From: an uncultured Lachnospiraceae bacterium
GTDB lineage: Bacteria; Bacillota; Clostridia; Lachnospirales; Lachnospiraceae
Direction of reading: 5' to 3'
Assembly: GCA_948989975.1 (NCBI GenBank)
Contig: CARHSH010000001.1
Location: 82,906 to 146,905 of the forward strand
Length of the DNA: 64,000 nt
Shown here piece after piece: positions 966 through 20,474 of the stretch. The position numbers were made by a program, and so were the translations under genes. Under the pieces are notes generated by a model. That model was not told where the DNA came from, ran no database searches, and saw nothing but the letters and a program-made list of their open reading frames with translations. Every line of letters begins with the position of its first letter. Position 1 is the first letter of the stretch.

Positions 966-2681
966 ATGGAAAATAGAATATTAGATTATGCTTGTGAACA
1001 GTTTGAGAGCCGTAATTATTGTGAAGCGTTGGAAGCGTTTGTTTTAGCTTATATGAAAGGTTATGAGCCGGAATGGGTGATTGAAAACATTTATAATTGT
1101 TATGTGGCTTGTAATGAGCTGGAATTTCGCAATGCTTATGGAAAGTGTGGGGCAGAGGTAAGCTATGAGGATTGCGTGTTGGACTTTATGCCTTATAAAG
1201 AAGGGGAATATTATATTTTTGATAAAGAGCGAAAGCAATTTATTGGAAAGTTCTTAGTTTCAGAACTAAAGATGGTTTCATCAGAGGAAGCATTAAATGA
1301 AATCGAGTTTGGCGCGGTGGCGGAAGCGTTCCATTGGAATCTGAAGGAAGAATATCAACTGCTTGCGGCGGCAAAAGACAAGAAAGTGTATGCAGTCTGC
1401 CATGAAATCAATTATATTTCTTCCTTTTATAAAATACCGGAGTTAGAAGAATATAATAAAAATGTGAAATTGTTTCAGGATTTCAGTCAGTTTCAGCAAT
1501 ATTTCCATAAAAATACGGGAGTTTATCTGCCCCGGATTTTGTCAGGGGATTTAGAGAGTGTAAAAGAATTAAATGAAATAGTTGAAGCGGAACATCAATT
1601 TAGATTAACTCCGGAGGGACGCAATACAGATCACGTATTGCTTACGATTGGGATACCTTCACGGAATAGAGGGAATCTTTTGTTAAAACGGCTGGAAAAT
1701 CTGCGGAACATAAAACTGGATGCGGAAATTGAAATTGCAATTTCGAAAAACGGCGTGGATTTCTATCAGGAAGAATATGATCAAGTGAATCAGGCGCAGG
1801 ATTCCAGAATTTGTTATTATGATCATCATAAGGATTTGGTGGCGCCTGAGAATTGGCATTTTGTGGTAGAAATGGCGCATGGGAAGTTTGTATTGCTGGT
1901 TTCGGATGAAGATGACATTATTTTAGATTCTTTAGGGCATTATCTAAAGCTGATAACGGAGTATCCGCAAGCGAGTGTGATAAGGGCAAAGTCCTGCATA
2001 TTTTATTCACGTTTATCGGAAAGATTGTATGCGGAAGGGACGGATGCATTAAAAAAAGGATTTTTGAAGCAAAATTATTTGTCAGGGTTGATTTTTCACA
2101 GGGAAAAGTTTTTAAAGCAAAATTTGCTGCGGTTAGAAAAATTCCGGGAAGAGAATTTATATTATTGCCTGTATCCGCATGAGTGGTGGTGCGCCATTTT
2201 GTCAAAAAAAGGCGTTTATATGGAAGAACCGTTTTTGTTGGTTCAGGAACGTGAGTCTGTGATTCAGGAAGAAAACTCAAAGTATATTGAAAAAGGAGTG
2301 ATAGAAGAAGGGGAGCATATTGCAAAGGGAACAAGCCTGCCGGCGTATTCTACATATGAAAGCCGCTTACAGCAGTTTTTAGGCATGATGGAATTTGTGC
2401 GTTGGATTGCGGATGGGGATAAGGAGCTTGCTTTTTTTTGCGTTGCAAGTTGTATAAGTAAAATTTTATTTCTATTGCTGCTGGCAAGGGATAGGGGGTA
2501 TGAAGTCTCAAACTTTATGAATATAGTTGATAAATTTTGCAAAATGTCTATTGAAGCAATCCGTGAGTTTGATTTTTCTGAGGAACAGCAAGTGCAGTTA
2601 TTATCAATATTAAAAACAAGCGCAATAGAAACATATGGGCAAGAGAGGGAGATTTTTGAAAAAGAACAGAATGCAGGATAG
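966..2681 (+). CDS. Putative glycosyltransferase (GT-A-like domain with an SDEDD DxD-type motif), N-terminal helical region, C-terminal domain shared with ORF 1..668
   Basis: 571-aa ORF. Central segment LLTIGIPSRNRGNLLLKRLENL...FVLLVSDEDDII resembles the GT2 nucleotide-binding/DxD region. RBS AAGGGGATGAG lies upstream. Confidence 0.45.
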   Translation: MENRILDYACEQFESRNYCEALEAFVLAYMKGYEPEWVIENIYNCYVACNELEFRNAYGKCGAEVSYEDCVLDFMPYKEGEYYIFDKERKQFIGKFLVSELKMVSSEEALNEIEFGAVAEAFHWNLKEEYQLLAAAKDKKVYAVCHEINYISSFYKIPELEEYNKNVKLFQDFSQFQQYFHKNTGVYLPRILSGDLESVKELNEIVEAEHQFRLTPEGRNTDHVLLTIGIPSRNRGNLLLKRLENLRNIKLDAEIEIAISKNGVDFYQEEYDQVNQAQDSRICYYDHHKDLVAPENWHFVVEMAHGKFVLLVSDEDDIILDSLGHYLKLITEYPQASVIRAKSCIFYSRLSERLYAEGTDALKKGFLKQNYLSGLIFHREKFLKQNLLRLEKFREENLYYCLYPHEWWCAILSKKGVYMEEPFLLVQERESVIQEENSKYIEKGVIEEGEHIAKGTSLPAYSTYESRLQQFLGMMEFVRWIADGDKELAFFCVASCISKILFLLLLARDRGYEVSNFMNIVDKFCKMSIEAIREFDFSEEQQVQLLSILKTSAIETYGQEREIFEKEQNAG

Positions 2682-2687
2682 GAAGAT

Positions 2688-3569
2688 ATGAAAACGATAT
2701 TAATTTTAGGATCAACCGGATTTATAGGGAGAAATTTAAAGGAATGGTTTGAGAAAAAGAAACAGTACACGGTTTTATGTCCTAATCGCAAAGAACTGGA
2801 TTTGCTCGATGAAAATATGGCAGATTCCTTTTTGGCGGCGCATAAAATAGATGTGGTTTTTAATTGCGCAATATTTTCTCCAAAGTCGGAAATGGAAGAA
2901 TTGGAAGTGATTGAAAAGGATTTGCGTATGTTTCTGAACCTTGAAAAAAATAAAGATAAATTTGGCAAAATGTTTTATTTTGGCTCTGGGGCGGAATATG
3001 ATAAGACAAAGCCTATTGTACAAGTGAAAGAGACGGATATTGGGAAAAGCATTCCGAAAAGCAGATATGGCATGGTAAAATATGTAATTGGACAAATGAT
3101 AGATGGATCGGATAATATCTATAATATACGGATATGGGGACTGTTTGGGAAGTATGAAGACTGGTGGACGACATTTATATCGAATTGCTGTTGTAAAGCA
3201 ATTAAGGATTACCCAATTTCCATTCGAAAAGACACGTATTTTGATTATCTTTGGATAGAGGATTTTTGCAGAATTGCCGAATGGGCAGTTGGACATGAAT
3301 TTGAGAGCCATACATACCATGCAGGGAGCGGACGGCGTATCTTACTGTCAGAAATTGCAAAAATAGTAAGGGACGTCAGCGGCAGGGAATTAGACATTAT
3401 TATTTGCAATGAGGGGCTGGGCAATGAATATACGGCGGACAGCTCACGTCTGATGAAGGAATATGGAAAAGACTATGTTACCCCTATGGAAACGGCAATC
3501 AGGGAATTGTATACATGGTATGAAACGCATCCGGAAATTATCAGTATGCAGAAATTAATATATGGTTAA
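2688..3569 (+). CDS. NAD(P)-dependent sugar epimerase/reductase (SDR family)
   Basis: N-terminal GSTGFIG Rossmann motif. Length (293 aa) and composition are typical of dTDP-4-dehydrorhamnose reductase / GDP-fucose synthase-like enzymes. Confidence 0.55.
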   Translation: MKTILILGSTGFIGRNLKEWFEKKKQYTVLCPNRKELDLLDENMADSFLAAHKIDVVFNCAIFSPKSEMEELEVIEKDLRMFLNLEKNKDKFGKMFYFGSGAEYDKTKPIVQVKETDIGKSIPKSRYGMVKYVIGQMIDGSDNIYNIRIWGLFGKYEDWWTTFISNCCCKAIKDYPISIRKDTYFDYLWIEDFCRIAEWAVGHEFESHTYHAGSGRRILLSEIAKIVRDVSGRELDIIICNEGLGNEYTADSSRLMKEYGKDYVTPMETAIRELYTWYETHPEIISMQKLIYG

Positions 3570-3597: not shown

Positions 3598-4599
3598 ATG
3601 AACGATATTTTTGAAAACAAGTCAGTGCTGATTACCGGAGGGACAGGTTCTTTGGGAAAGTATTTTACAAGATACATTCTGACGCATTTTAATCCGCATC
3701 GGGTAGTGATATTTTCGCGTGATGAATATAAACAGAGCATGATGAAACAGGAATTTGCGCAGTATGGGGATAAGCTGAGATTTTTTATCGGTGACGTGAG
3801 GGATAAAGACAGGCTTCTAAGGGCGTTCGACAGAGTGCAGATTGTAATTCATGCAGCAGCGATTAAACAGGTGCCGACTTGTGAATATAACCCGATAGAG
3901 GCTATTAGGACGAATATTAATGGGGCGATGAATGTCATTGACGCCGCGATTGACCGGAAGGTGGAGTGTGTTGTGGCGTTGTCAACGGACAAAGCGGTGA
4001 ACCCGGTAAACTTATATGGCGGAACAAAATTAGTTTCGGACAAGCTTTTTGTGGCGGCGAATGCCTATGCAAAAATTTCAGGGACAAAGTTTAGCGTTGT
4101 CCGGTATGGAAATGTGGCGGGCAGCAGGGGAAGCGTGATCCCGTTTTTTGAGAAACTTATGGCGGAAGGAAAGACAACGCTTCCGGTGACGGACGTGCGC
4201 ATGACGCGGTTTTGGATTGATTTGGAGCAAGGGGTTAAATTAATTTTAAAAGCTTTATATACGGCTGTTGGCGGCGAAGTTTTCGTTTCTAAAATACCTT
4301 CTTTTAAAGTGACGGATTTGGTAAAAGCCATGAATCCGGATGGTTCCATTGAGGAAGTCGGTATCCGTGAAGGGGAAAAGCTGCATGAAGTAATGATTAC
4401 AGATGTAGATTCAAGAAGGACGGTTGAATTAGGGGACTGTTATGTGATTATGCCGGAATTTTCATGGTATAAGCCAAATGAAGAAATAAAAGCGGGGAAA
4501 AAGCTTCCAGATGAATTTGTTTATAGTTCAGATAAAAATACGAGCTGGCTTTCTGTGGAACAGCTTCAAGAAAAATTAAAATTATATCGAAAGAAATAG
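3598..4599 (+). CDS. pseB: UDP-GlcNAc 4,6-dehydratase/5-epimerase (first step of pseudaminic acid biosynthesis)
   Basis: Collinear similarity to Campylobacter/Helicobacter PseB (FlaA1): ITGGTGSLGK, FFIGDVRDKDRL, LSTDKAVNPVNLYGGTKL, SVVRYGNVAGSRGSVIPFF, TRFWI. Confidence 0.85.
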   Translation: MNDIFENKSVLITGGTGSLGKYFTRYILTHFNPHRVVIFSRDEYKQSMMKQEFAQYGDKLRFFIGDVRDKDRLLRAFDRVQIVIHAAAIKQVPTCEYNPIEAIRTNINGAMNVIDAAIDRKVECVVALSTDKAVNPVNLYGGTKLVSDKLFVAANAYAKISGTKFSVVRYGNVAGSRGSVIPFFEKLMAEGKTTLPVTDVRMTRFWIDLEQGVKLILKALYTAVGGEVFVSKIPSFKVTDLVKAMNPDGSIEEVGIREGEKLHEVMITDVDSRRTVELGDCYVIMPEFSWYKPNEEIKAGKKLPDEFVYSSDKNTSWLSVEQLQEKLKLYRKK

Positions 4600-4609: not shown

Positions 4610-6067
4610 TTGGAACGGTTTGAATTAACGGAAAAAACTAAACTATGGATTTACGGGGCAGCTTTTGGAGGAACGCTCTTATATGAAAAACTGCATAAGA
4701 ATCATTATCAGGTGGAAGGGTTTATAGATAAAAGGGCAGAGGAAATAGAGAGTTTATGCGGGCTTTCCGTCTATAGCGTAAAACAAGCCAAAGAACGTAT
4801 GGGACGTGGGCAGCTAACAGTCATTATTTCAGTGAAAAATGTGTTTGAACATAGCGGCATTGCCAGAGAGTTAATAAAAAATGGAATTACAAACATCATT
4901 TATAAGCCATATGCGGCTCTGAAAGGATTTGCAGACGAATCAGCAAAAGAAATGTTTGAGCTTCATAATCAGTTGATTGATTGCGGCTTTTGTAAGGGCG
5001 GCAGGTTTTGCAGGGCGGACGAAATAGAAAAGAATTGGGAAATCCCAAAAGAATATTTGCTGGCCAAAGATTCCAAAATGCAGACAGTTTTTCTGCCTCT
5101 GCCTATGCTGTTTGAAAACCAAAGCGTTACGGGCGGATATAAGGAACGGAATGTTTGTTTTTTATATCCGCATATACAATTCTTCCGGTATCTTCAAGGA
5201 GAAGCTGACGCTTCCTGCCAGCGCTATCTGGAGTATTGTGAGATGGCAGTGGAAGAATTGGATTCTTTTCAAGTTACGGAAGCGTGGAAAGAAAATGTGA
5301 TCCGAAACAGGGCAGATGTGTTTTACCAGATGAACCATGGGTTTTTGTTCCAGAAAGATTTTTTTGTCAGAAATTCGCCAGAGGCGGAATGGAATGAGGA
5401 CGGATACTTTAACTTGAAAAGCGGGAAGCACAGAGCGGCATTTTTTGCCGCCCGCCGTCAGATGTATATTCCCGTAAAGATCACTCATTCGGATGCAGAA
5501 AAATGGATTTCTGAGGATAGGGCAAATGAGGTGAAAAAAGAGCTTTTACAACAGGGCGTATTTGAATTAAAAGCTCCGGTTGAGCATCCATTTTTTTATC
5601 AGATGCCATGTACGGCAGAGAATTTTTTCTATGGCGTATGCTGCGCGTTGGCAGATGAACTCGGCGGGTTGTATTATCAAACGCCAATGGATCATGTATT
5701 GAAAGGCAAAAAGATATATTTGAATGTAGATGATTATGGGTTTGTCAGCCGTTTTTTCAGGAGAAGCGGGGCTATGGTATACGATGCCGATGAAAGGGAC
5801 CGGAAATTGAAAGAAGCGTTAGAAAGATTGTTTTCGCTTCATTTTGGAAGGCTTGTCGCCGCTCAGGAACATTACGACTTGGCGGTGTTTAAAACAGACT
5901 GCCCGCAAAATTTGAAGCAATGTCTGGAAACTATTTTGGCGGATCATTATTTTATCCTTGCCCCAGAGAGCATTTTGTTGGAAACTGAGTGGATAAAAAG
6001 AGTTTATTGTGGGGCTGCATGGGGAAAAAGCATGGTTTTGTGGCATTTGGAGAAATGTAATGTTTGA
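4610..6067 (+). CDS. Uncharacterised protein, paralog 1 of 3: NeuD/PglD-N-like Rossmann N-terminus plus central ParB/sulfiredoxin-like motif SGKHR
   Basis: 485 aa. N-terminus LWIYGAAFGG...YQVEGFIDKRAEE resembles the N-domain of NeuD/PglD acyltransferases. Motif FNLKSGKHRAAFFAARRQMYIPV resembles the ParB/Srx DGhHR-A-P signature. Homologous to 6060..7490 and 8555..9784. Confidence 0.5.
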   Translation: MERFELTEKTKLWIYGAAFGGTLLYEKLHKNHYQVEGFIDKRAEEIESLCGLSVYSVKQAKERMGRGQLTVIISVKNVFEHSGIARELIKNGITNIIYKPYAALKGFADESAKEMFELHNQLIDCGFCKGGRFCRADEIEKNWEIPKEYLLAKDSKMQTVFLPLPMLFENQSVTGGYKERNVCFLYPHIQFFRYLQGEADASCQRYLEYCEMAVEELDSFQVTEAWKENVIRNRADVFYQMNHGFLFQKDFFVRNSPEAEWNEDGYFNLKSGKHRAAFFAARRQMYIPVKITHSDAEKWISEDRANEVKKELLQQGVFELKAPVEHPFFYQMPCTAENFFYGVCCALADELGGLYYQTPMDHVLKGKKIYLNVDDYGFVSRFFRRSGAMVYDADERDRKLKEALERLFSLHFGRLVAAQEHYDLAVFKTDCPQNLKQCLETILADHYFILAPESILLETEWIKRVYCGAAWGKSMVLWHLEKCNV

Positions 6068-7490
6068 CATTCAAAAAGAGAGCAGGATAGTCCTTTACGG
6101 GCATTCGCAATTTGACATTGTGAAAGATAAATTCCGGGAACTAAAAGAACGTGGATATCAGGTGCTTGGATATATAGATCAAAGGGCAAAAGAGATTGAA
6201 ACGTATGTACAGGCGCCTTGTTGGACAGTAGAAGATTTTCCAGTTGGGCTAAAAGAACGTCAAGACATCGTAATTATATTGTTATTGCAAAATGCGCGGA
6301 TGCATGAGTCCATTGTATCTTCACTTTGCGGCAGGGGATTTAAAAAATTTTTATTTTTACCGGAAAAAGCGGATACATCTGAGAAAACATGTATGGTGCA
6401 AAAGTACAATGCCTTTATACGGTCAGAATATGATGAGTTGATGGGGATTCCTGAATGGGACAGCTTGTGTTTAAATTCTGTAAAAGGTGGAAAGCGGTTT
6501 TTGAAATGTGGAAAAGAACGCTGTACGCTTTTGGTTCCGGTGGAAATGCTGTTTCTTTATGAACAGGAGCAGTCTTTAGAAGAAAATATCGCGTTTGCAG
6601 AGGATTATCTGGAATTATTTGCGGTATTAGAAGGAAAGGCATTTGAATGCGGACGTTATTTTAATTTCATGGGAGCGGTGGAGAAGGAAGAAAAAGAAAA
6701 ATTACTGGCTGACCGTTTGGCGTTATATTGTTTGTGGGAACATTACAGACACTGCGATATAAATTATTTTATAGAAGCGGCTGCGCTTGTTTCATGGAAC
6801 CGGAGAGGATATTTTAATATTATTGACGGGCATCATAGAGTGATTTATCTGATGGCAAAGGGGTATAAGAAGATTCCCGTATCCATGCCGCTTAAAGATT
6901 ATGATAAGTGGATAGGAGAGGCAGATCAGGCATTGTCCGCTGCGCTGCGCAGATTGCGCGTCCCAATTCCACATCCGTTTTTTTTGAATGAAGAATGTAT
7001 CTATGAAACGCACTGGCAGAAAGTGATTCATTATTTATATGCGGCAGGACAAAGCAGGGACTGCAGGTTTGTGGAAATAGATACTTATATGGGATATTAT
7101 GCGGGGGCTTTCCAGAGAATTGTAAAAAAAGAAGCTCTGATAGTTTTAGAGAATGAGACGGATAAACGCTTATGTGAAAGTATGCAAAGGCTCATGCATC
7201 AAAAAATACCCATTTTGAACTATCCAGAAGTTATGTTTCGCGAAACCGATCTTGTCTATCTGAAATTGGCTGGAAATGAGGAAGCGTCTTTTATGCGTTT
7301 TATAAAGGACGTAACTGGACAGTGTATTTTGCTGGATATTCCTTGGGAAGAAGAAGGGAAGACGTTAAAAGAGGCTGTCCGCATTCTTGGGGGAGATTTG
7401 AAACAGATAGGCAGTTATCATAGAGATAAGGCGTATGGAATTTATGTGATTGAAAGGAGTGTTGGCAATTATGGCAGAGGTGACGACTAG
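6060..7490 (+). CDS. Uncharacterised protein, paralog 2 of 3 (NeuD-N-like plus ParB/Srx-like DGHHR)
   Basis: Start ATG at 6060 overlaps the stop of paralog 1 by 8 nt (RBS GGAGAAATG). Motifs: IVLYGHSQF...YQVLGYIDQRAKEIE; FNIIDGHHRVIYLMAKGYKKIPV. Confidence 0.5.
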   Translation: MFDIQKESRIVLYGHSQFDIVKDKFRELKERGYQVLGYIDQRAKEIETYVQAPCWTVEDFPVGLKERQDIVIILLLQNARMHESIVSSLCGRGFKKFLFLPEKADTSEKTCMVQKYNAFIRSEYDELMGIPEWDSLCLNSVKGGKRFLKCGKERCTLLVPVEMLFLYEQEQSLEENIAFAEDYLELFAVLEGKAFECGRYFNFMGAVEKEEKEKLLADRLALYCLWEHYRHCDINYFIEAAALVSWNRRGYFNIIDGHHRVIYLMAKGYKKIPVSMPLKDYDKWIGEADQALSAALRRLRVPIPHPFFLNEECIYETHWQKVIHYLYAAGQSRDCRFVEIDTYMGYYAGAFQRIVKKEALIVLENETDKRLCESMQRLMHQKIPILNYPEVMFRETDLVYLKLAGNEEASFMRFIKDVTGQCILLDIPWEEEGKTLKEAVRILGGDLKQIGSYHRDKAYGIYVIERSVGNYGRGDD

Positions 7491-8496
7491 AAGCCTTAAA
7501 AATGAAAGGACAATACTGCGGGACGTTGTCCCGGTGGACACGCCTTTTTTATTAGGCATATTTTTAGGCGATATATGTAATTTTAAATGTAAATACTGCA
7601 TTCAGTCTGCAGATGAATCCGTTGAGGAGAAAAAACAGTTAGTAAGGAAATTTTTAGAGTGGGAAACATTTCTTAAAATTGCAGATTCTGCAAAACAATT
7701 TCCGAAGAAAATTAAAACGGTATTGCTGACAAGCATCGGGGAGCCTTTACTGCATCCGGAAATTGTAAAGATGTTAGAGTATATGAACCGGATTGGGCTG
7801 GCGGATAACTATGAAATCATTACAAATGCATCTATGCTTTCTGTAGATTTGGGAAGACAATTAGTGGATGCAGGGCTTACAAGATTATGCGTTTCGCTTC
7901 AGGGGCTGACGGCGGAAAAATATAAAGACGTCTGCGGCGTAGAGATAGACTATGATGCATTTTACCAAAATTTAAAGAGTTTTTACGAATACAGCAGGGG
8001 AAAGTGCAGCGTACATATTAAGACAGTGGATCTTTCGTTAGAGGACGGTGAAGAAGACGCATTTCTAAAACTCTATGGTCCGATATGCGACACGATTTAC
8101 ATTGATAAAGTCGCTCCGGTGTTTAAAGGCGTAGATTATAGCGGCATTGTGCTTGACGGGGAGCCTTATACAGAAGATAAATACAGGCAAAATGCGGCTG
8201 TGTGCTGTAGTTCTATTTTTTATACATTGTATACGCTTGCGGACGGACGGATCGCTCCTTGTTGTGACCATCCGCAGCCGGTTATTTATGGGGACATTAA
8301 CCAGACTGGGCTTGTGGAAGCATGGTCTTCTGAAAATAGAAAACGGTTTTTAAGACAGCATTTGACCCATAAAAGATGCGAAAACGGCATTTGCGCACAG
8401 TGCGCCGCGCCGCTTGTAAGAGAGTTTGACAGTGATAAGTTAGATGGCTGTGAGGAAGCAATCTTGGCCCGTTTAGAGGGGGGTATTTTTCATTAA
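7471..8496 (+). CDS. Radical SAM enzyme with C-terminal SPASM/twitch-type Cys-rich domain
   Basis: CNFKCKYC (Cx3Cx2C) near the N-terminus. C-terminal cysteines CCSS...CCDHPQP...CENGICAQC. RBS GGAG sits 12 nt upstream of ATG 7471; the track's alternative start is TTG at 7450. Confidence 0.7.
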   Translation: MAEVTTRSLKNERTILRDVVPVDTPFLLGIFLGDICNFKCKYCIQSADESVEEKKQLVRKFLEWETFLKIADSAKQFPKKIKTVLLTSIGEPLLHPEIVKMLEYMNRIGLADNYEIITNASMLSVDLGRQLVDAGLTRLCVSLQGLTAEKYKDVCGVEIDYDAFYQNLKSFYEYSRGKCSVHIKTVDLSLEDGEEDAFLKLYGPICDTIYIDKVAPVFKGVDYSGIVLDGEPYTEDKYRQNAAVCCSSIFYTLYTLADGRIAPCCDHPQPVIYGDINQTGLVEAWSSENRKRFLRQHLTHKRCENGICAQCAAPLVREFDSDKLDGCEEAILARLEGGIFH

Positions 8497-8554: not shown

Positions 8555-9784
8555 ATGGGTTCCGTCACAGGAAAAGCTTTGTTGGAAAATGGAAAGCGGA
8601 TATGTGGGTTTATAGACAAACGGGCAAAGGACATACGCCAATGCATCGGGTATCCGGTCTATGACATTGAGACATTGAAAAAGAAAGCGGGCAGACACGC
8701 TGTGATTTTTGTGGCGGTGAAAAATGTTTTTTATCATATGGACATTGCAGTGGAATTGTACGCAAATGGCTTTGAGAGAATTATATATAAGTCATGCCAT
8801 GCCATTCATGGAACGATGTCAGGGGAAGAACAGTTATTAGATAAGGCGTATGAACTGATATATAAAACAGGGGACATTCCGGATTTTGAGATACCTATTG
8901 TACTGCCAAAACAGGAATTTCAATGGACGCCAAGCAGGATTCTTTTAGAAACAGAGGAATATGTGACATTGAACGCGCCGTTAGAACAGATTTATACGGG
9001 AGTGACTGCGGCGAAATGGACAAATACGCCCGTTTTGTCATTAATTCCGTATATTGAACTGTTCCGTTATTTTGAAGGGGACAGCCAGTGCAGGCCAGAT
9101 GATTATATTGCGCTTTGTGAGGAAGGGGCGCGGAGTGAACAGATTGAAATAACGGATAGTTGGAAGCAATATGCGCTCGAAAACCGGTTTCATATTTTCG
9201 GGCAAATGCGGTGGCAGTATGAACATGAACCTGAGTTTTTTACCGTACAGGCGCCAGAGGCGGCATGGGACAAAAGGGGATATTTCCGCCTGCTGACCGG
9301 CAAGCACAGGATTTGTTTTTTGATTGCGATGGGAAAGACAAGCGCGCCGCTGAAAATTCGCAAAGACACATGGAGGGCGATCTGTGAAGATCCTAAATTA
9401 CATGAAATCCGCCAGATCTTAGAACGCAGCCCAAATGCGCAAATGCCGCTTCCGCACATTTATTTTCAGGGAAACCGGCAGTTTCATTGTATATTTTATC
9501 AAAAAAAGCTGAGAGAGATTTATTGGCAGATGTACAAAACCGGACAAATGTGTGGGCAGGAAAGAGAAACTTTAGAAATTCTCGATCAGACGCAGGACAG
9601 CGGATATTTTTCCCTGATATTTTCACAGATGGGCTTTTGCGTCTACAGGGATTTCAGGCTGTCTTCCGATAAGAATGAAATTTATCAGAAATTGGGAATG
9701 AAAATTTCAGAACGGGCAGATAGCGCTTCAAAAACGCGGATAAAGCTGGATGGGGAGGGAAATTTTCAAAATGAAAACGACTGA
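8555..9784 (+). CDS. Uncharacterised protein, paralog 3 of 3 (ParB/Srx-like TGKHR); N-terminal Rossmann motif partly lies upstream of the only in-frame ATG
   Basis: FRLLTGKHRICFLIAMGKTSAPL. The in-frame upstream codons encode EEVYIYGASY, which aligns to LWIYGAAFGG in paralog 1, but there is no ATG/GTG/TTG between the stop at 8474-8476 and ATG 8555. Confidence 0.45.
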   Translation: MGSVTGKALLENGKRICGFIDKRAKDIRQCIGYPVYDIETLKKKAGRHAVIFVAVKNVFYHMDIAVELYANGFERIIYKSCHAIHGTMSGEEQLLDKAYELIYKTGDIPDFEIPIVLPKQEFQWTPSRILLETEEYVTLNAPLEQIYTGVTAAKWTNTPVLSLIPYIELFRYFEGDSQCRPDDYIALCEEGARSEQIEITDSWKQYALENRFHIFGQMRWQYEHEPEFFTVQAPEAAWDKRGYFRLLTGKHRICFLIAMGKTSAPLKIRKDTWRAICEDPKLHEIRQILERSPNAQMPLPHIYFQGNRQFHCIFYQKKLREIYWQMYKTGQMCGQERETLEILDQTQDSGYFSLIFSQMGFCVYRDFRLSSDKNEIYQKLGMKISERADSASKTRIKLDGEGNFQNEND

Positions 9785-11315: not shown

Positions 11316-12178
11316 AAGAGTTGACAAAGGAGATTATCCAATATATCGGCGCGGTCAAAAAGGAGTATGAAAAGAGGTATCATATCCAGATTTTAATGTG
11401 GACAGTGAGAAAATCATTTCTGAGGGGCTTGGAACGAAAGACAAGTGATTTGGACGTTGTGTTTGTGTTCCAAAATTTAGATTCAAAGAAGAAAAAAATT
11501 ATCTTTGAGCGCGCAGACCGCAGAATTGAGCTGCAATGCTGGGACATACAGGATATATTGGAAATCATTGCTGAGAATAAAAGGCGATCTTTACAGGAAA
11601 AGAAGTTTTTCCCATACTATAAAAGCAATGAGTTGAAACATTATATTTTGGATTATTACCATGGCTTTTATGCCGGCTGGGATTCTGCGCTGATGAAAGA
11701 TGAGTATGGATTTTGCCAAAATTGCGGGAAACATATCTTTCATCTTTATGAACCGTTTGTTGTGGCAAATATGTTGTATTTGGATTTAAAAGGGCAGTGT
11801 AAACGCGTCGAAATGGGGTATTGGCTGTCTTTAAATGAATACATTAATGCTATCTGGTCAGGGTTAGCGGGGCTTCATGCGCTTTCAAATGGCAGGCCTT
11901 CCGATACGCAGATACGGTTTTTGGCGGAAACGTATCTGAACGGGGAGGAGGCCAAAATGCTACTAAGCTATGTTGCGCATTTTAAACAGACAGTCCAAAA
12001 GCAGAGTAATTACTGCAATATGGAAGCGTTAAACCAAATGCTTTTGGATCTTAAGCTTAGGTTGGAGAAAAAAATGAAACAGTTTAACATACAAGAGATT
12101 GACATAGAAAAAGAACTTTTGGATATTGAAGGTCAATTAAAGGAAATGAGGAATGTTTATGAAAATTCAAGTTGCTGA
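11312..12178 (+). CDS. Pol-beta-superfamily nucleotidyltransferase-fold protein
   Basis: RGLERKTSDLDVVFVF matches the G[SG]x9-13DxD nucleotidyltransferase signature. ATGA stop/start overlap with the upstream gene. Confidence 0.45.
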   Translation: MKELTKEIIQYIGAVKKEYEKRYHIQILMWTVRKSFLRGLERKTSDLDVVFVFQNLDSKKKKIIFERADRRIELQCWDIQDILEIIAENKRRSLQEKKFFPYYKSNELKHYILDYYHGFYAGWDSALMKDEYGFCQNCGKHIFHLYEPFVVANMLYLDLKGQCKRVEMGYWLSLNEYINAIWSGLAGLHALSNGRPSDTQIRFLAETYLNGEEAKMLLSYVAHFKQTVQKQSNYCNMEALNQMLLDLKLRLEKKMKQFNIQEIDIEKELLDIEGQLKEMRNVYENSSC

Positions 12179-13964
12179 TTATGTTGCGCAGTTTTTAATG
12201 GAAAAAGGAATTACGGATCTTTTTTCAGTAGTAGGCGGCGGCTCGATGTTTCTAAATGATGCGTTTGGGAGGGCAAAAGGCATACGCTGTATTTATAACC
12301 ATCATGAGCAGGCCTGCGCCATGGCGGCAGAAGCTTATTTTAAGTATAAAAACCAAATGGCGGCTGTCTGCGTGACGTCAGGGCCGGGCGGGACAAATGC
12401 TCTGACAGGGGTTCTTGGCGCATGGCAGGATAGCATCCCGTTATTTATTATTTCCGGACAGGTTCGTTATGAGACAACGGTAGACAGCGCAGGACTTTCT
12501 TTGCGGCAGTTTGGGGGACAGGAGCATCAAATTGTGGATACTGTCAAAAATATAACGAAGTATGCGGCAATGGTGAAAAAAGCGGAAGACGTCAGATGGC
12601 ATTTGGAAAAAGCGTATGATATGGCAATGGATGGAAGACGGGGGCCGGTTTGGCTGGATATTCCATTAAATGTGCAGAGCGCTGAAATTGAAACGGAATC
12701 GTTAAAAGGGTTTCAGAAACCTGAGAAAGACACAGAGAAGGCAAAAGGGTATGTAGATTCTATTTTGGAAGAATTAAAGAAGGCGGAACGGCCGTTAATC
12801 ATAGCGGGTTCCGCAGTCCGGACTTCCGGCGCGCAAGACGTTTTTCTCAGGCTGTTGGAACGGCTGCATATTCCGGTGACATATCCTCTGGTCGTGTCCG
12901 ATTTGGTAAGCAATGAGAATCGTCAGGCGGTAGGCTGTTTTGGAGGGGCAGGGACGAGAGCCGGAAATTTTGCAGTCCAAAATGCGGATTTACTGCTTGT
13001 GTTTGGATGCAGAATGGCATTTTCCCATATTGGGTTTAATTATGAAAAATTTTCTCCGGCTTCCAGAAAGATTGTAGTAGACATAGATGAGGCGGAACAG
13101 TCAAAACCCACGATGAAACGCGATATAAAAATATTGGCAGACGTACGGGATATACTTGAAGAAATGGAAAAGCGTGATTTATGCGGTATGCCTTCCTATC
13201 CAAAATGGAATGCGTATTGTCAGGAATTAAAGAAAAGATTTCCGATCTATCAAAAGCATCATGAAACAAGCGAAGATGGAAGGGTCAATCCTTATTTTAT
13301 GGCAAAAGCATTGTCGGATCGTATGGATGAACATGGCATTATCGCGCTTGGCAATAGTTCGGGATTAGATCCAAAACTTCAGTATGGCATAGAGAAACAA
13401 GGGGAACGGGTTATTTTAAATTGTAACTGCGGTTCTATGGGATACTGCCTTCCGGCAGGCATTGGCGCCGCGGCGGCTTCGGGCAGACGGGTGGTTGTAT
13501 ATACAGGGGACGGATGTATGCAGATGAACATACAGGAGCTTTTAACCATTTCTCACAATAAACTTCCGGTAAAAATCATTGTGCTGAATAATAAAGGATA
13601 TGGCGGAGTGGTCGCTACGCAGACTAATTTTTTCGATGGGCATCTGTGCGGCTGTACGGAGGAATCCGGCATCAGTATGCCGGACTTTGAAAAGCTTGCG
13701 TATGCGTATGGATTTCAATATGTCAGGGCCGAGAACCATGAGCAGGTAGAAAAGGCTTTGGATGCATTATTATGTGATGACGCCCCGGCAATATGTGAGG
13801 TGTATCAAGATATGATTCAGGGGATTGAACCTAGGGTTTCAAGCAGGAAGTTAGAAGATGGGACATTGGTTTCAACCGGAATTGATGACTTAGCCCCATT
13901 CCTTCCTTTAGAAGAATATGAGGCCTGCCAATATGAGAATTGGGTGAAAGGCGGAAAAGAATGA
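12153..13964 (+). CDS. Thiamine-diphosphate-dependent enzyme of the acetolactate synthase / YerE-like carboligase family
   Basis: 603 aa. N-terminal TPP-enzyme pyrimidine-binding domain (VVGGGSMFLND, CVTSGPGGTNALTG). C-terminal TPP-binding GDGCMQMN...LNNKGYGGV. Confidence 0.7.
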   Translation: MFMKIQVADYVAQFLMEKGITDLFSVVGGGSMFLNDAFGRAKGIRCIYNHHEQACAMAAEAYFKYKNQMAAVCVTSGPGGTNALTGVLGAWQDSIPLFIISGQVRYETTVDSAGLSLRQFGGQEHQIVDTVKNITKYAAMVKKAEDVRWHLEKAYDMAMDGRRGPVWLDIPLNVQSAEIETESLKGFQKPEKDTEKAKGYVDSILEELKKAERPLIIAGSAVRTSGAQDVFLRLLERLHIPVTYPLVVSDLVSNENRQAVGCFGGAGTRAGNFAVQNADLLLVFGCRMAFSHIGFNYEKFSPASRKIVVDIDEAEQSKPTMKRDIKILADVRDILEEMEKRDLCGMPSYPKWNAYCQELKKRFPIYQKHHETSEDGRVNPYFMAKALSDRMDEHGIIALGNSSGLDPKLQYGIEKQGERVILNCNCGSMGYCLPAGIGAAAASGRRVVVYTGDGCMQMNIQELLTISHNKLPVKIIVLNNKGYGGVVATQTNFFDGHLCGCTEESGISMPDFEKLAYAYGFQYVRAENHEQVEKALDALLCDDAPAICEVYQDMIQGIEPRVSSRKLEDGTLVSTGIDDLAPFLPLEEYEACQYENWVKGGKE

Positions 13965-14872
13965 AACTTTGTTTAGGGACTGTCCAACAGGGATTGGAAT
14001 ATGGGATTAATAATAAGTATGGAAAGCCTTCAAAAGAGTATAGCCAAAAAATCTTTTACGAAGCGGTAAAGCATGGGATTACAATGTTTGATACGGCAAG
14101 GGCATATGGAGATGCAGAATTGCTTTTGGGGGAATATTTAAAAGAACATGGGAATCGAAATGAAATCAAGATCATATCAAAACTCCGTCCGAACATACTA
14201 GAAGGTTGTAAGGATATATACGATACGATATGCCGGGAATGTGAAGGCACTTTAAAGCGGATAGGCGTAGAATCCTTAGACGGATATTTGCTCCATACGC
14301 CGGAGTACATCCGAGATCCCAAAGTCGTTTCGGCTCTTTTAAAATTAAAGGAGGAGGGATATGCTTCGCATATAGGCGTATCCATTTACAATATAGAAGA
14401 CGGGGACGTTGCAATCAATACGGGGGCAGTTGACTATATACAGCTTCCTTTTAGCATATTTGACCAGCGCGGAAAAAACAGCGGATTTCTCCGGCGGGCA
14501 AAAGAAGCCAAAATTACGGTATTTGCAAGAAGCATATTTTTGCAGGGATTGTATTTTATGGATGCGGGCAGTCTGCCGGAAAAAGTGAAACGGGCAGAGC
14601 CTATGCTGCGGAACTGGGAGCTGATTTTAGAGGAGCGTCACGCCAATCGGGAAGAAGTCTTAATTGAATTTGTGAAACAGTCCAAAGAGATTGATTATCT
14701 TGTGTTTGGAGTAGACACAGTGGAACAGTTACAAAGAGATATTTCTGTATTCGAAAGCGAAAGTAAATTAGATGAAACTATTTGGAACATAATCGGTGAA
14801 AAATTTTCCGATGTGGAGGAAAGCATTATAATACCAAGTTTATGGGCGAAACAAGAAAGGAAGGGAAAATGA
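13961..14872 (+). CDS. Aldo/keto reductase family oxidoreductase
   Basis: FDTARAYGDAE, LDGYLLH, IGVSIYN: AKR signatures. ATGA overlap with the TPP enzyme. Confidence 0.7.
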   Translation: MKLCLGTVQQGLEYGINNKYGKPSKEYSQKIFYEAVKHGITMFDTARAYGDAELLLGEYLKEHGNRNEIKIISKLRPNILEGCKDIYDTICRECEGTLKRIGVESLDGYLLHTPEYIRDPKVVSALLKLKEEGYASHIGVSIYNIEDGDVAINTGAVDYIQLPFSIFDQRGKNSGFLRRAKEAKITVFARSIFLQGLYFMDAGSLPEKVKRAEPMLRNWELILEERHANREEVLIEFVKQSKEIDYLVFGVDTVEQLQRDISVFESESKLDETIWNIIGEKFSDVEESIIIPSLWAKQERKGK

Positions 14873-17078: not shown

Positions 17079-18389
17079 ATGGGAAAATCCCAAAAACTTT
17101 ATCAAAGGGCGAAATCAATGATTCCGGGCGGGACGCAGTTACTGAGCAAGCGCCCTGAAATGTTTTTGCCGGAATACTGGCCGGCATATTATAAGAAGGC
17201 AAAAGGATGCTATGTATGGGATCTGGATGACCGTAAATATATGGATGCAAGTTATATGGGAATAGGCGCGAATGTCCTTGGATATGCAGATGAGGATATA
17301 GATCTTGCCGTTGAATGGGCCATTTCTAACGGGAGTATGTGTACATTAAATGCGCCGGAAGAAGTGGCTTTGGCGGAAAAAATTATAGAATTACATCCGT
17401 GGGCAACGCAGGTCAGATATGCAAAAACAGGCGGTGAAGCATTGGCGGTTGCAGTCCGCATTGCGCGGGCATATGCAAAAAAGGACATTATTTTATTTTG
17501 TGGGTACCATGGCTGGAGTGATTGGTATCTGGCCGCAAATTTAAGTGAGGATTCGGCGCTGGACGGTCATTTGATTCAGGGATTAGAGCCGGCGGGCGTA
17601 CCGCGGGGATTGGCGCAGACAGCGTTTCCATTCCGTTATAATGACATAAACAATTTTTTAGAGCTTATTGAAACATACAAAGGGAGGATTGCGGCAGTCG
17701 TTTTAGAGCCGATTCGGAATATTTATCCGAAAAATGATTTCTTGCAGACTGTCCGGGAAGTGACGAAAAGAGAGGATATTGTCTTGATAGCGGACGAGGT
17801 GTCTGCCGGATTCCGTTTGAATTGCGGAGGGGCGCATCTTACATTAGGATTTGAACCGGATATGGCAGTGTTGGCGAAGGCGTTAGGCAACGGGTATCCG
17901 ATGTCTGTTATTTTTGGGAAAGCCGGATATATGGAATCTGCGCAGAGCACATTTATCAGCAGCACTTACTGGACGGAACGGACGGGACTTTGCGCGGCGC
18001 TGGCCGTTATCAAAAAATACCAAGCGGAGCATGTAGAAAAACATCTTGACAGAATAGGGAAGATGGTTTTAGAGGGCTGGAAAGATGCGGCAAACCAATA
18101 TGGGGTACAGATAAAGCTTTCCGGCATACCGCCGCTGGCCCACTTTGAATTTGAATTGGACAGCCCGCTTGCATACAATACTTACTTTACGCAAGAAATG
18201 TTGAAAAAAGGATTTTTGGCAACGAATGCGTTTTATGCGTCGTATGCGCATAAGGAAACGGATATTTTGGAATATTTGAATGCGGCAAACCAAGTGTTTC
18301 GGCAAATATCGGAAATTACAGCATCGTCAGATATTATGCGGCATTTAGACGGCCCATTGCGCCAGACCGGATTTCAAAGGCTTACCTGA
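17079..18389 (+). CDS. Class III (PLP-dependent) aminotransferase, glutamate-1-semialdehyde aminomutase-like
   Basis: 436 aa. SMIPGGTQLLSKRPE, YAKTGGEALAVAVRIARAY, LIADEVSAGFR: typical AT-III motifs. Confidence 0.65.
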   Translation: MGKSQKLYQRAKSMIPGGTQLLSKRPEMFLPEYWPAYYKKAKGCYVWDLDDRKYMDASYMGIGANVLGYADEDIDLAVEWAISNGSMCTLNAPEEVALAEKIIELHPWATQVRYAKTGGEALAVAVRIARAYAKKDIILFCGYHGWSDWYLAANLSEDSALDGHLIQGLEPAGVPRGLAQTAFPFRYNDINNFLELIETYKGRIAAVVLEPIRNIYPKNDFLQTVREVTKREDIVLIADEVSAGFRLNCGGAHLTLGFEPDMAVLAKALGNGYPMSVIFGKAGYMESAQSTFISSTYWTERTGLCAALAVIKKYQAEHVEKHLDRIGKMVLEGWKDAANQYGVQIKLSGIPPLAHFEFELDSPLAYNTYFTQEMLKKGFLATNAFYASYAHKETDILEYLNAANQVFRQISEITASSDIMRHLDGPLRQTGFQRLT

Positions 18390-18413: not shown

Positions 18414-19454
18414 ATGGAAATGAAAATGTATCAGCTTATGAAAGAGCGCGCCTATGTAATTGCGGAAATGTCGGCAAATCATGCGGGCTCGAAAGAAACC
18501 GCGGTAAAACTAATTCATGCAGCGAAAATGGCGGGAGCGGACTGTGTGAAAATACAGACTTACACGGCGGATACGATGACGTTAGATTGTGATAACGCAT
18601 ATTTTCATATTGGAGATGGGACATGGAAAGGCGATACACTGTATTCTTTGTATGAAAAAGCGTATATGCCATGGGAATGGCAGGCGGAATTAAAGGAGGT
18701 CACAGAGACATTAGGCATGGATTTTTTGTCCACTCCATTTGATAAGACGTCGGTGGATTTTTTGGAAAGCCTTGACGTGGCGGCGTATAAGATTGCATCG
18801 TTTGAGCTGACAGATCTTCCGCTGATTCAGTATGTGGCATCGAAAGGAAAACCGGTGATTCTGTCGACGGGCATGGCGGAGTTGTATGAAATAGACGAAG
18901 CTGTAAAAACAATCCAGAGGGAACATAATTCTCAAATTATTTTAATGCACTGCGCAAGCGCGTATCCGGCGATTACAGAGGATATGAATTTGTATACAAT
19001 GCAAAATTTAAAAGAGATTTATCAAGTTCCGGTCGGGCTGTCCGATCATTCCATGGGTTCTGTCGGAGCCATTACAGCGGTGGCGTTAGGCGCGCAAATT
19101 ATTGAAAAACATTTTTGCCTTGACCGGGCCATTGAAACGCCGGATTCCTCATTTTCCATGAACCCTGCTGAGTTTCGGCAGATGGTATGTGACATACGGC
19201 AGGCGGAAAAAGCGTTAGGATTGGTCCGGTATGGGGTGAAAAGCCAAGAAAATCCAAATCTTGGCTTTAGGAGGTCTATTTTTGTCACCCAAGACATTAA
19301 AAAGGGGCAGAAGCTGACAGAAGAAAATATCCGGGTGATTCGGCCGGGATATGGGGCGCCTCCTAAATTTTATGGGGAAGCCTTGGGACAGACGGCTTTA
19401 AGTGACCTGAAAAGAGGCACACCTCTTAAGATTTCGGATATAGGAAGTGTGTAA
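18414..19454 (+). CDS. pseI: Pseudaminic acid synthase (NeuB family)
   Basis: Collinear with PseI: IAEMSANHAGS, VKIQTYTADTMTLD, YKIASFELTDLPLIQYVA, GLSDHS, IEKHFCLDR. Confidence 0.8.
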   Translation: MEMKMYQLMKERAYVIAEMSANHAGSKETAVKLIHAAKMAGADCVKIQTYTADTMTLDCDNAYFHIGDGTWKGDTLYSLYEKAYMPWEWQAELKEVTETLGMDFLSTPFDKTSVDFLESLDVAAYKIASFELTDLPLIQYVASKGKPVILSTGMAELYEIDEAVKTIQREHNSQIILMHCASAYPAITEDMNLYTMQNLKEIYQVPVGLSDHSMGSVGAITAVALGAQIIEKHFCLDRAIETPDSSFSMNPAEFRQMVCDIRQAEKALGLVRYGVKSQENPNLGFRRSIFVTQDIKKGQKLTEENIRVIRPGYGAPPKFYGEALGQTALSDLKRGTPLKISDIGSV

Positions 19455-19469
19455 AAAGAGGGGCGGCTT

Positions 19470-20474
19470 ATGAAAAAAAGAGTGTATATCCGGGCGGACA
19501 TGAACCCTCAAATAGCGACCGGCCATATCAGGCGCTGCCTTGCAATTTCAGACGCGGTCAGGGAACTTGGGGGAGAGGCGGTTTTTTTGACGGCGGATTT
19601 TAATGCAAAACGGCTGTTAGAAGAACATGGGCTAAGATATTATGTTTTAAACAGCAGATGGGATAGGATGCAAGATGAATTAGAGACATTGTATCAGATA
19701 ATCCAGAAAGAAAATATAGATACATTATTAATTGACAGTTATCAGGTTACAAAAAAGTATTTGGAAAATCTTAAGAAAGCTGTTAAAATTGTATTGCTGG
19801 ATGATTTATTTTTGTTTGATTATCCGGCAGACGAAATCATATGTTACGCAAATTACTGCCATCAGTTTCCCTATGATAAAAAAAGATATGAAAACTTATA
19901 TTTGGGCATGGACTATACACCCCTGCGGCGTGTGTTTTGGAAGCCCGAAAAGAAGGAAATCCGAAAAGAAATCAGGCGGGTTTTGGTCTGTTCCGGCGGC
20001 AGTGATATGTTTGGGGCGATAGAAACGATAGTGGGGAAATTAAAAGATCGGTATGAGTGTATCGATGCAGTTTGCGGATTGTATTCTGATTCGTATGAAA
20101 AGCTGTTGGAAACTTATGGAGGATATAAAAATATCCGAATCGTAAAAGACGTAAAAGATATTGAAACTTATATGCTTCAGGCAGATGTGGCAATTTCTGC
20201 GGGCGGGACTGCGTTGTATGAATTATGCGCAGTTGGCGCGCCGGCCATTTCTTATGCAATAGCGGACAACCAGCTTAAAAATGTTATGCAGTTTGAAAAA
20301 GACGGTCTCATTTCATATGCCGGGGACATACGGCGGGAAGATATTAGTGAAAACGTTTTAACTTATTTAGAGAAATATGAGAGCCAAACGACGCGCAGCG
20401 AATTGTCACGGAAAATGCAAAGCGCTGTTGATGGAAAGGGCGCGGTTAGGATTGCAAAGGCTCTCATGGAATAG
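19470..20474 (+). CDS. pseG: UDP-2,4-diacetamido-2,4,6-trideoxy-beta-L-altropyranose hydrolase
   Basis: N-terminal IRADMNPQIATGHIRRCLAISDAV matches the PseG (GT28-like) GxGHxxR motif. 334 aa. Confidence 0.7.
   Translation: MKKRVYIRADMNPQIATGHIRRCLAISDAVRELGGEAVFLTADFNAKRLLEEHGLRYYVLNSRWDRMQDELETLYQIIQKENIDTLLIDSYQVTKKYLENLKKAVKIVLLDDLFLFDYPADEIICYANYCHQFPYDKKRYENLYLGMDYTPLRRVFWKPEKKEIRKEIRRVLVCSGGSDMFGAIETIVGKLKDRYECIDAVCGLYSDSYEKLLETYGGYKNIRIVKDVKDIETYMLQADVAISAGGTALYELCAVGAPAISYAIADNQLKNVMQFEKDGLISYAGDIRREDISENVLTYLEKYESQTTRSELSRKMQSAVDGKGAVRIAKALME

Follow-up and report, generated by a model that had tools for sequence, protein, structure and literature searches.

A twitch-type radical SAM enzyme related to BtrN in a pseudaminic acid, legionaminic acid and CDP-hexose gene array of a Lachnospiraceae bacterium

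We analyzed a stretch of 64,000 nucleotides from an uncultured Lachnospiraceae bacterium (assembly GCA_948989975.1, contig CARHSH010000001.1, positions 82,906 to 146,905 of the forward strand; termed here the window) and in particular the gene at 7471-8496, which encodes a radical S-adenosylmethionine (SAM) enzyme. This gene is located in a 32-kb array (966-33047) of 30 co-directional open reading frames (ORFs), one of them an N-truncated duplicate, that are spaced by −80 to +177 nt. The array contains full gene sets for pseudaminic acid, legionaminic acid and a CDP-3,6-dideoxyhexose together with tailoring genes. The product of the radical SAM gene is very probably a sugar-tailoring enzyme of the twitch type. 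The gene and its elements are as follows:

7452..7459, + strand: Shine-Dalgarno sequence GAAAGGAG, read from the sequence, 11 nt 5′ of the ATG at 7471 and within the 3′ end of the preceding gene (paralog 2)
7471..8496, + strand: twitch-type radical SAM gene, 341 amino acids, ATG at 7471, TAA at 8494-8496
7576..7599, + strand: codons for C36-x3-C40-x2-C43 (CNFKCKYC), which ligate the SAM-binding [4Fe-4S] cluster and do not vary in 115 full-length homologs or in alignment A2
8188..8430, + strand: twitch domain, residues 240-320, with the invariant C246 (8206-8208), C264 (8260-8262), C308 (8392-8394) and C311 (8401-8403)

The ORF, its motifs and its coordinates had been described in an initial annotation made from the sequence alone and were confirmed here: CNFKCKYC forms residues 36-43, and the C-terminal part with the pattern CC...CC...CxxxxCxxC carries C245/C246, C264/C265, C303, C308, C311 and C327. 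The Pfam models Radical_SAM (6.9e-18, 65.8 bits, cutoff 29.5) and SPASM (2.7e-8, 34.4 bits, cutoff 21.5) both match the 341-residue protein; the CxxxCxxC motif, the curated family model and the partial TIM-barrel core fold assign it to the radical SAM superfamily. A word-indexed search returned 504 homologs at E<=1e-5, and an exhaustive profile search returned 1,736 representatives of 50%-identity clusters at E<=1e-30; the nearest homologs come from Roseburia and other Lachnospiraceae. The AlphaFold2 model has a mean predicted local distance difference test score of 94.4 and a predicted template modeling score of 0.92. The ORF is a real, conserved gene and not a chance reading frame. Its start is the ATG at 7471 and not the TTG at 7450, because orthologues in other assemblies share the same start methionine (MAEITTRSLKN…); the longer start is unlikely. 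The gene shares its first 20 nt with the 3′ end of paralog 2 (stop codon 7488-7490), whereas a gap of 58 nt separates the stop codon from the annotated ATG of paralog 3 (8555). Translational coupling to both neighbors had been proposed; it is therefore seen with paralog 2 only.

Across the 115 full-length homologs C246, C264, C308 and C311 are the sole C-terminal cysteines with 100% conservation, in agreement with alignment A2, while C245 (35%), C265 (52%), C303 (36%) and C327 (2%) vary. The cysteine triad of the SAM cluster, the GEP (GGE-type) motif and other core positions are invariant in the family alignments. SPASM domains contain seven or eight conserved cysteines that hold two auxiliary clusters, twitch domains three or four that hold one, and the SPASM motif reads CX9-15GX4C ... 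CX2CX5CX3C ... C (PMC9477430). Neither the CX2CX5CX3C block nor the seven-cysteine SPASM motif is present in the window protein. Since four C-terminal cysteines are invariant throughout the family, the protein is predicted to be a twitch enzyme with one auxiliary [4Fe-4S] cluster. A two-cluster SPASM enzyme is ruled out, as just four C-terminal cysteines are conserved, so that the auxiliary domain first labeled SPASM/twitch narrows to twitch. The Pfam SPASM model matches nevertheless, the twitch domain being a shorter form of the SPASM domain.

A profile of 66 family members was compared with all PDB sequences. The first match was BtrN (E 1.5e-20), the 2-deoxy-scyllo-inosamine dehydrogenase of the butirosin pathway (PDB 4M7S/4M7T), followed by MoaA (1.9e-17), CteB, DesII and maturases of peptides that are made ribosomally and then modified post-translationally (RiPPs). 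The BtrN alignment spans the core (29-154) and the twitch domain (240-320) with all four auxiliary cysteines in register, and their spacing is C-x17-C-x43-C-x2-C in the window protein and C-x17-C-x44-C-x2-C in BtrN. In a Foldseek search the top three different proteins were DesII, BtrN and BlsE, all of them radical SAM enzymes acting on sugars. BtrN, which had been suggested as an analogue, is indeed the closest solved relative of the window protein, both by sequence profile and by fold. The auxiliary cluster of BtrN is ligated by four cysteines and is catalytically essential; it is proposed to transfer the electron in the oxidation of an alcohol to a ketone (PMC10337720).

The window protein resembles BtrN in architecture but is not the same enzyme. 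It is approximately 90 residues longer, with approximately 47 extra residues between core and twitch domain; BtrN belongs to a 2-deoxystreptamine antibiotic cluster, whereas the window gene comes from an anaerobic Firmicute and is part of an island for surface glycans, probably those of flagellin. A BtrN orthologue was rejected on these grounds: the identity is approximately 17%, and the neighbors include no cyclitol genes but belong to pseudaminic acid, legionaminic acid and CDP-hexose pathways. HygY and NeoN from aminoglycoside pathways probably also resemble the window protein; both are twitch enzymes with the same cluster arrangement that act as epimerases, and HygY has a latent dehydrogenase activity. 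Together with SpeY, which like BtrN was matched by the window family, these aminoglycoside epimerases and dehydrogenase are more distant than BtrN and serve antibiotic pathways, not cell-surface glycans. The sequence relation is weaker for DesII (3e-9), a TDP-4-amino-4,6-dideoxy-D-glucose deaminase/dehydrogenase, and for BlsE (1e-6), a cytosylglucuronate decarboxylase; both carry out different chemistry, and their auxiliary-cluster ligation differs from that of the window protein or is missing.

No NCBIfam model reached its cutoff with the radical SAM protein. The best ones (tungsten-cofactor maturase, MoaA and N_Twi_rSAM) matched the radical SAM core only. Several families were rejected. The GTP 3′,8-cyclase MoaA model (TIGR02666) reaches 63.6 bits where its cutoff is 284, and its match is limited to residues 30-170. 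N_Twi_rSAM (NF033640) scores 62.6 bits against 170, and its match begins at profile position 107, without the N-terminal domain of approximately 100 residues; proteins of this N-Rossmann type are separate neighbors in many related loci. Tungsten-cofactor maturase, NirJ/AhbD and viperin gave partial matches below cutoff, confined to the core. The anaerobic sulfatase-maturing enzyme (anSME) likewise matched partially and below cutoff in NCBIfam and ranks below BtrN; the window protein has neither two auxiliary clusters nor a sulfatase gene nearby. Radical SAM C-methyltransferases of classes A-D were also rejected: no B12-binding Pfam domain was matched, the fold is nearest to BtrN, and Mmp10, TsrM, RlmN and HemN rank far lower. 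The C-methylation first considered for this gene is thus unlikely.

The sugar-pathway setting proposed for the gene, as opposed to a RiPP locus, was borne out by its position within the array. The genes that bear most directly on its function are:

2688..3569, + strand: short-chain dehydrogenase/reductase (SDR)-type epimerase/reductase, RmlD-like (Pfam Epimerase, RmlD_sub_bind)
3598..4599, + strand: PseB, inverting UDP-GlcNAc 4,6-dehydratase that makes a 4-keto sugar (NCBIfam TIGR03589, 508 bits, cutoff 407.75)
12153..13964, + strand: YerE/JanthE-like thiamine diphosphate (ThDP)-dependent carboligase with three Pfam TPP domains, the most constant partner of the radical SAM gene
13940..14872, + strand: aldo-keto reductase (AKR), candidate ketone reductase (Pfam Aldo_ket_red 1.2e-32), compare YerF and the C-terminal domain of EpaA
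16214..17065, + strand: divergent CTP_transf_3 cytidylyltransferase, not a PseF equivalog (Pfam 1e-28; PseF model 20 bits against 205.7)
17079..18389, + strand: class-III aminotransferase, GSA-aminomutase-like, candidate ketone/aldehyde aminotransferase (Pfam Aminotran_3 8.6e-44)
18414..22074, + strand: remaining pseudaminic acid core, PseI (468.9 bits), PseG (170) and PseC (494.9) as NCBIfam equivalogs and a PseH-like GNAT by Pfam
22156..26172, + strand: CDP-hexose genes, two glucose-1-phosphate cytidylyltransferase-like (TIGR02623, 357.9 bits), CDP-glucose 4,6-dehydratase (TIGR02622, 435.9 bits) and the 3-dehydrase RfbH/E1 (710 bits)
26213..33047, + strand: legionaminic acid set by NCBIfam and Pfam, NeuD-type acetyltransferase, NeuB-type synthase, NeuC-type epimerase, cytidylyltransferase, CBS-nucleotidyltransferase, LegB and LegC

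In the legionaminic acid set, the NeuD-, NeuB- and NeuC-type genes, LegB and LegC score above the NCBIfam cutoff. Below it remain the CBS-nucleotidyltransferase and the cytidylyltransferase, for which the PseF model gives 191.6 against 205.7.

The ThDP-dependent protein has its best PDB match with JanthE (8rph; E 1.6e-100, 340 bits), whereas acetolactate synthase reaches 236 bits or less. JanthE is a YerE-like enzyme that joins 2-keto-acid donors to ketone acceptors (PMC12188165). YerE places an acetyl branch on CDP-4-keto-3,6-dideoxyglucose, and the branches are then modified by reductases and transaminases (PMC9306805). With a ThDP enzyme nearest to JanthE and YerE, the window would thus encode a ketone-accepting carboligase, a reductase and an aminotransferase. 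As in the YerE/YerF and JanthE pathways, where ThDP-dependent branching of a 4-keto sugar is followed by reduction, the carboligase gene is followed by an AKR gene, and CDP-glucose dehydratase and RfbH genes are found in the same array. In contrast to the window, the descriptions of those pathways mention no radical SAM partner (PMC9306805, PMC12188165). The window ThDP enzyme also differs from them in its co-occurrence with NeuB-type synthases. The same type of ThDP enzyme recurs beside NeuB-type synthases in many phyla (L024, L032, L062, L067, L072, L068, L043, L089, L090), frequently in the order NeuB-GNAT, HAD phosphatase, ThDP enzyme. A published description of this association was not found. 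The 2-keto acid made by NeuB might serve as donor for ThDP-dependent branching.

For comparison we gathered 90 loci (L001 to L090), of which 87 without duplicates hold a member of the family; ORFs were called and clustered for the first 84 (82 without duplicates). The orthologue clade of the window gene was defined by at least 42% identity and is separated in a neighbor-joining tree without bootstrap by distances of <=0.5 as compared to >=0.58 to other members of the tree. Eleven loci of this clade were examined (L001, L003, L006-L010, L085, L086, L087, L088). The ThDP enzyme accompanies the radical SAM gene in ten of them, all but L088. A NeuB-type synthase is present in seven of the 11 loci, PseB in six and CDP-hexose genes in five. 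The radical SAM gene is single-copy in every locus but L086, where four copies are found. The AKR (L001, L003, L006, L007, L008) and the aminotransferase (L001, L003, L008) are restricted to the Lachnospiraceae-type loci. In L003 the order is PseB-like gene, ThDP enzyme, AKR, radical SAM gene, aminotransferase, SDR and NeuB; the class-III aminotransferase lies directly 3′ of the radical SAM gene there and in L004. Altogether, among the 87 family loci, 11 of the 12 window-clade loci examined (window included) and most of the others are sugar clusters.

Outside the orthologue clade, a "type B" clade comprises 19 sequences from Desulfobacterota, Victivallales, Kiritimatiellota, Nitrospirota and candidate phyla. 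Its conserved block begins with NeuB-GNAT, HAD phosphatase, ThDP enzyme and a family-2 glycosyltransferase and continues with an N-Rossmann radical SAM protein, a second radical SAM/SPASM protein, NUDIX, the twitch radical SAM gene and an SDR gene. The SDR gene adjoins the radical SAM gene in approximately 15 type B loci as well as in L009, L079 and L085. The remaining clades are positional orthologues within tandem arrays. In the 82 loci the number of twitch radical SAM copies is one in 30, two in 8, three in 9, four in 22 and five in 13. Tandem arrays of three to five paralogs occur in L005, L012, L015, L020-L022, L030, L041, L044, L052, L076 and others. They are found in CDP-hexose clusters together with FkbM-type methyltransferases, B12-radical SAM enzymes, N-Rossmann radical SAM proteins and RmlC-like epimerases. 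Of the 77 loci with less than 42% identity, 49 contain CDP-hexose genes. Over the whole family the association is stronger with CDP-deoxyhexose genes and the ThDP enzyme than with NeuB.

The glycan pathway served by the window enzyme is probably a cell-surface pathway for flagellin. No flagellin gene is present in the window; the link is drawn because syntenic and related loci carry flagellar or Maf genes. Fifteen of the 82 loci, among them those of Clostridium cylindrosporum (L005) and Clostridioides difficile (L023), have a gene for flagellin, FliD, FliS, FlaG or Maf no further than 10 kb away. In the syntenic loci L007 and L008 (72% identity) an MptE-like (Maf) gene precedes the orthologue of the glycosyltransferase gene at 966-2681, and the MptE-like family includes flagellin nonulosonic-acid transferases. 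Tandem arrays often adjoin flagellin, FliD, FliS or FlaG genes. In the C. difficile locus (OX246690.1, 286-307 kb) two family members have a flagellin/glycosyltransferase block on one side and RmlC-like, cytidylyltransferase and dehydratase genes on the other. Such a set of genes is presumably unlike both C. difficile flagellin glycan types that we are aware of, and the locus may represent a further one.

The fold and the cluster ligands are established for the window protein, as are its kinship to BtrN, its setting in a sugar cluster and the conserved partnership with the ThDP enzyme. On these grounds we favor a BtrN-like, ketone-forming dehydrogenase that feeds the ThDP, reductase and aminotransferase partners, with a rough probability of 0.45. 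Reaction type, substrate and order of steps are inferred. The CxxxCxxC [4Fe-4S] cluster would cleave SAM reductively, and the resulting 5′-deoxyadenosyl radical would take the carbinol (H-C-OH) hydrogen from a deoxy or amino sugar intermediate that is probably nucleotide-activated. The substrate radical would then pass an electron to the auxiliary [4Fe-4S] cluster, predicted to be fully ligated by cysteines, yielding a keto sugar, so that the enzyme would act as an NAD-independent dehydrogenase like BtrN. Abstraction of the carbinol hydrogen and formation of a ketone are proposed because of the twitch architecture, and the ketone-using neighbors fit with this. The YerE/JanthE-like carboligase could add an acyl branch to the ketone to give a tertiary alcohol; the AKR or SDR reductase could re-reduce the ketone, resulting in net epimerization or reduction of the branch; and the class-III aminotransferase could convert C=O to C-NH2, as in the BtrN/BtrS pair.

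Candidate substrates would be a UDP-linked hexose of the pseudaminic acid pathway, a CDP-3,6-dideoxyhexose or a branched derivative of it, or a CMP-linked or free nonulosonic acid. The nonulosonic acid put forward in the initial annotation is possible in view of NeuB in 7 of 11 loci; most family members, however, are located in CDP-6-deoxyhexose clusters without NeuB, and the window itself has a CDP-3,6-dideoxyhexose set. A UDP- or CDP-4-keto-6-deoxyhexose, or a branched sugar made from one, is at least as likely. The broader proposal is more tentative than the dehydrogenase assignment. It sees a BtrN-like twitch radical SAM clade as a standard part of anaerobe surface and flagellin glycan pathways; together with the YerE-like ThDP carboligase and a reductase or aminotransferase, the enzyme of the window's orthologue clade might install a keto-derived C-branch, an amino group or an inverted center on a nonulosonic acid of the pseudaminic/legionaminic acid type or on a hexose precursor.

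Oxidation followed by re-reduction has a precedent in 8-epi-pseudaminic acid, which is made by the SDR EpaB and the cytidylyltransferase-AKR fusion EpaA (PMC12053666). These Acinetobacter baumannii prophage proteins are the sole oxidize-reduce tailoring system for finished pseudaminic acid that we found. In the window, the AKR and the CTP_transf_3 cytidylyltransferase are encoded by separate genes, whereas they are fused in EpaA. EpaB is an NAD-dependent SDR and not a radical SAM enzyme, and the analogy to the window gene is functional only, without a claim of homology. Pfam scans of the window revealed no EpaB-like short-chain dehydrogenase gene; the sole adh_short match is a secondary one to PseB.

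Several observations weigh against assignment as a BtrN-like dehydrogenase. The window protein is just approximately 17% identical to BtrN. Three different sugar pathways are present in the context, so that the substrate is not deducible from it. Two routes to 4-keto sugars are already encoded in the window, PseB on the one hand and CDP-glucose dehydratase with RfbH on the other; as both provide 4-keto sugars to the YerE-like enzyme, an extra ketone-forming step is not strictly needed. The same arrangement of the twitch cluster can serve epimerases, and the window clade retains extra non-ligand cysteines. Finally, the L088 homolog (42% identity) is located outside any sugar cluster and lacks the ThDP enzyme.

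A radical SAM sugar epimerase like HygY and NeoN is an unlikely but serious alternative. Here a non-ligand cysteine would return hydrogen to the opposite face and invert one stereocenter without net oxidation. The twitch architecture is the same as for a dehydrogenase, and any of several cysteines could donate the hydrogen: C140 (98%), C179 (100%), C206 (92%) and C265 (100%) are kept in the window clade, and C155 is conserved to 81-89% across the whole family. Tandem arrays of three to five paralogs in deoxyhexose clusters could moreover reflect inversion at different carbons. However, no single non-ligand cysteine is invariant among the 115 homologs, RmlC-type and SDR epimerases are already encoded in many loci, and the strict pairing with a ketone-accepting ThDP carboligase would be left unexplained.

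Another radical reaction on a sugar is about as improbable as epimerization. One candidate would be 1,2-diol dehydration or deamination to a deoxy-keto sugar (as by AprD4 or DesII, with an SDR reductase acting next), another a BlsE-like decarboxylation, whose substrate might be a nonulosonic or uronic acid, and a third the forming or rearranging of a C-C bond in the ThDP-derived branch.

Maturation of a peptide or protein is a very improbable role, whether the enzyme were of the RiPP type or, like anSME, were to modify flagellin or some other protein. In its favor are the Pfam SPASM match, the partial matches to many NCBIfam peptide-maturase models and the L088 homolog with its surroundings (7518-7658 and 10001-11011), as this homolog lies 2.3 kb downstream of genes for a C39-peptidase ABC exporter and a double-glycine-leader peptide. 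The peptide ORF encodes 46 amino acids, with a leader ending in …LEQVVGG and followed by the core RYYVNLNDSQQKKLF. Three partner-switching genes (anti-sigma kinase, STAS, SpoIIE) separate the homolog from the peptide and exporter genes. The NCBIfam matches are far below cutoff and confined to the radical SAM core, with CcpM, StsB, WgkB and lachnocin models at 30-36 bits against 500-650. The 35 residues ahead of CxxxCxxC leave no room for a PqqD-like RiPP recognition element (RRE). Within ±1 kb of the gene no free-standing small ORF was found, as had been noted before; all ORFs of at least 20 amino acids overlap or sit inside larger genes, and no C39 exporter or other RiPP gene is present in the window. 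A hidden precursor peptide, which would have spoken against a sugar substrate, is thus lacking near the window gene, while the L088 homolog does have a leader peptide nearby. The sugar-cluster setting of 11 of the 12 window-clade loci, the absent seven-cysteine motif and the rank of anSME below BtrN also argue against a maturase. Compared with anSME and the SPASM maturases of RiPPs (SuiB, SkfB, CteB, PqqE, EpeE), the window gene is without second auxiliary cluster, RRE, precursor peptide and sulfatase gene.

A redox helper, for instance one replacing the E3 reductase as electron donor to the RfbH/E1 3-dehydrase, is hardly credible: RfbH/E1 indeed lacks an E3-type (Fer2/FAD/NAD) reductase partner anywhere in the window, and gene clustering of the family loci turned up no obvious E3-like family among the frequent neighbors, but the invariant cysteine triad, GEP motif and core positions point to a working radical SAM catalyst, RfbH is missing from many family loci, and arrays of three to five paralogs are hard to reconcile with electron carriers.

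The enzyme type is already known from aminoglycoside pathways. What is new is the pseudaminic/legionaminic acid surface-glycan setting (probably flagellin), the conserved presence of a YerE-like carboligase as partner, and how large the family is and how it is arranged in tandem. Full-text searches, which do not cover subscription journals, found no paper linking radical SAM enzymes to pseudaminic or legionaminic acid, flagellin glycosylation or CDP-sugars, in line with the earlier statement that such tailoring is undescribed; no curated family, solved structure or paper covering the window protein was found either. Carbohydrate-acting twitch radical SAM enzymes are known from a small number of aminoglycoside antibiotic pathways, whereas here a family of thousands would act in primary cell-surface glycan biosynthesis. 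If the broader proposal above is true, biosynthesis of nonulosonic acids or flagellin glycans would gain its first radical SAM step, and a sugar so far undescribed would be implied. In gut Lachnospiraceae and other anaerobes the glycans on flagellin influence motility and immune recognition, and few of these glycans have a solved structure. The radical SAM gene together with its ThDP partner would predict unusual branched, aminated or epimerized sugars, the window array yields a testable shortlist of enzymes and substrates, and the tandem arrays of three to five paralogs suggest that much radical sugar chemistry is unexplored. Should the enzyme be just an oxygen-independent substitute for an NAD-dependent dehydrogenase, the outcome would be more modest but would still fill an annotation gap.

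The radical SAM gene is flanked by three paralogs and further tailoring genes:

966..2681, + strand: family-2 glycosyltransferase, 571 amino acids, tailoring gene of the array
4610..6067, + strand: paralog 1, PglD_N-like Rossmann domain at the N-terminus, GKHR motif, methyltransferase-like fold at the C-terminus
6009..7490, + strand: paralog 2, 26% identical to paralog 1
8555..9784, + strand: paralog 3, whose conserved N-terminus extends in frame 5′ of ATG 8555 without a canonical start codon
9750..12178, + strand: methyltransferase (521 amino acids) and nucleotidyltransferase-fold protein (296 amino acids) by Pfam, co-occurring with the paralogs in L001, L006 and L007

The three paralogs are mutually 26-28% identical. 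Their family gave 254 hits, of which few carry a source name, and those read "hypothetical protein"; Pfam matches only PglD_N and C2185-like_N, and the fold search yielded domain-level matches only. By analogy to PglD, the Rossmann module may bind the nucleotide of a nucleotide sugar. Elsewhere in the clusters this PglD_N-like module forms fusions with FkbM methyltransferases, radical SAM proteins, a class-I methyltransferase and a pyruvyl-transferase-like protein.

The paralogs are present in L001, L006 and L007, with a distant relative in L003. Their homologs occur with the ThDP enzyme and NeuB in L089, where the radical SAM gene is present, and in Treponema L090, where it is not. A functional unit of radical SAM gene and paralogs was rejected, since the paralogs are absent from L008, L009, L085, L086 and L087, and Treponema L090 has them without the radical SAM gene. 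The interleaving reported at first thus holds for one lineage (window, L001, L006, L007, L089) and is not kept clade-wide; the constant partner is the ThDP carboligase. In L009, the intergenic DNA 3′ of the radical SAM gene (9953-11038) reads …IIYGSSYIG followed by stop codons, which by its sequence appears to be what is left, after decay, of a paralog-3-type gene's 5′ end. Because L009 keeps this remnant, the adjacency of radical SAM gene and paralog would be older than the L009 lineage and lost there.

The sequence …EEVYIYGASY, a Rossmann glycine-loop motif, is encoded in frame 5′ of ATG 8555 (8477-8557), and no ATG, GTG or TTG for this N-terminus follows the in-frame stop codon at 8474-8476. 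A GTT at 8531 occupies the position of the ATG in the L006 orthologue, L007 uses a GTG further upstream, and an ATT at 8492 overlaps the radical SAM stop codon. The gene for paralog 3 is either truncated by 8 residues or starts at a non-canonical codon.

Two tandem methyltransferase genes at 15050-16293 have very similar sequences. The first (15050-15571) is without the N-terminal approximately 55 residues and looks like a truncated duplicate; it is preceded by a gap of 177 nt, the sole sizeable one in the array. The ORF at 42-668 resembles the C-terminal half of the adjoining 571-residue glycosyltransferase and is probably the end of a second copy running off the start of the window. The rest of the window is chromosomal, with riboflavin and biotin genes, SpoVT, a class A penicillin-binding protein, TrkH, PPK2 and a chemotaxis receptor, which fits a motile, spore-forming Firmicute.

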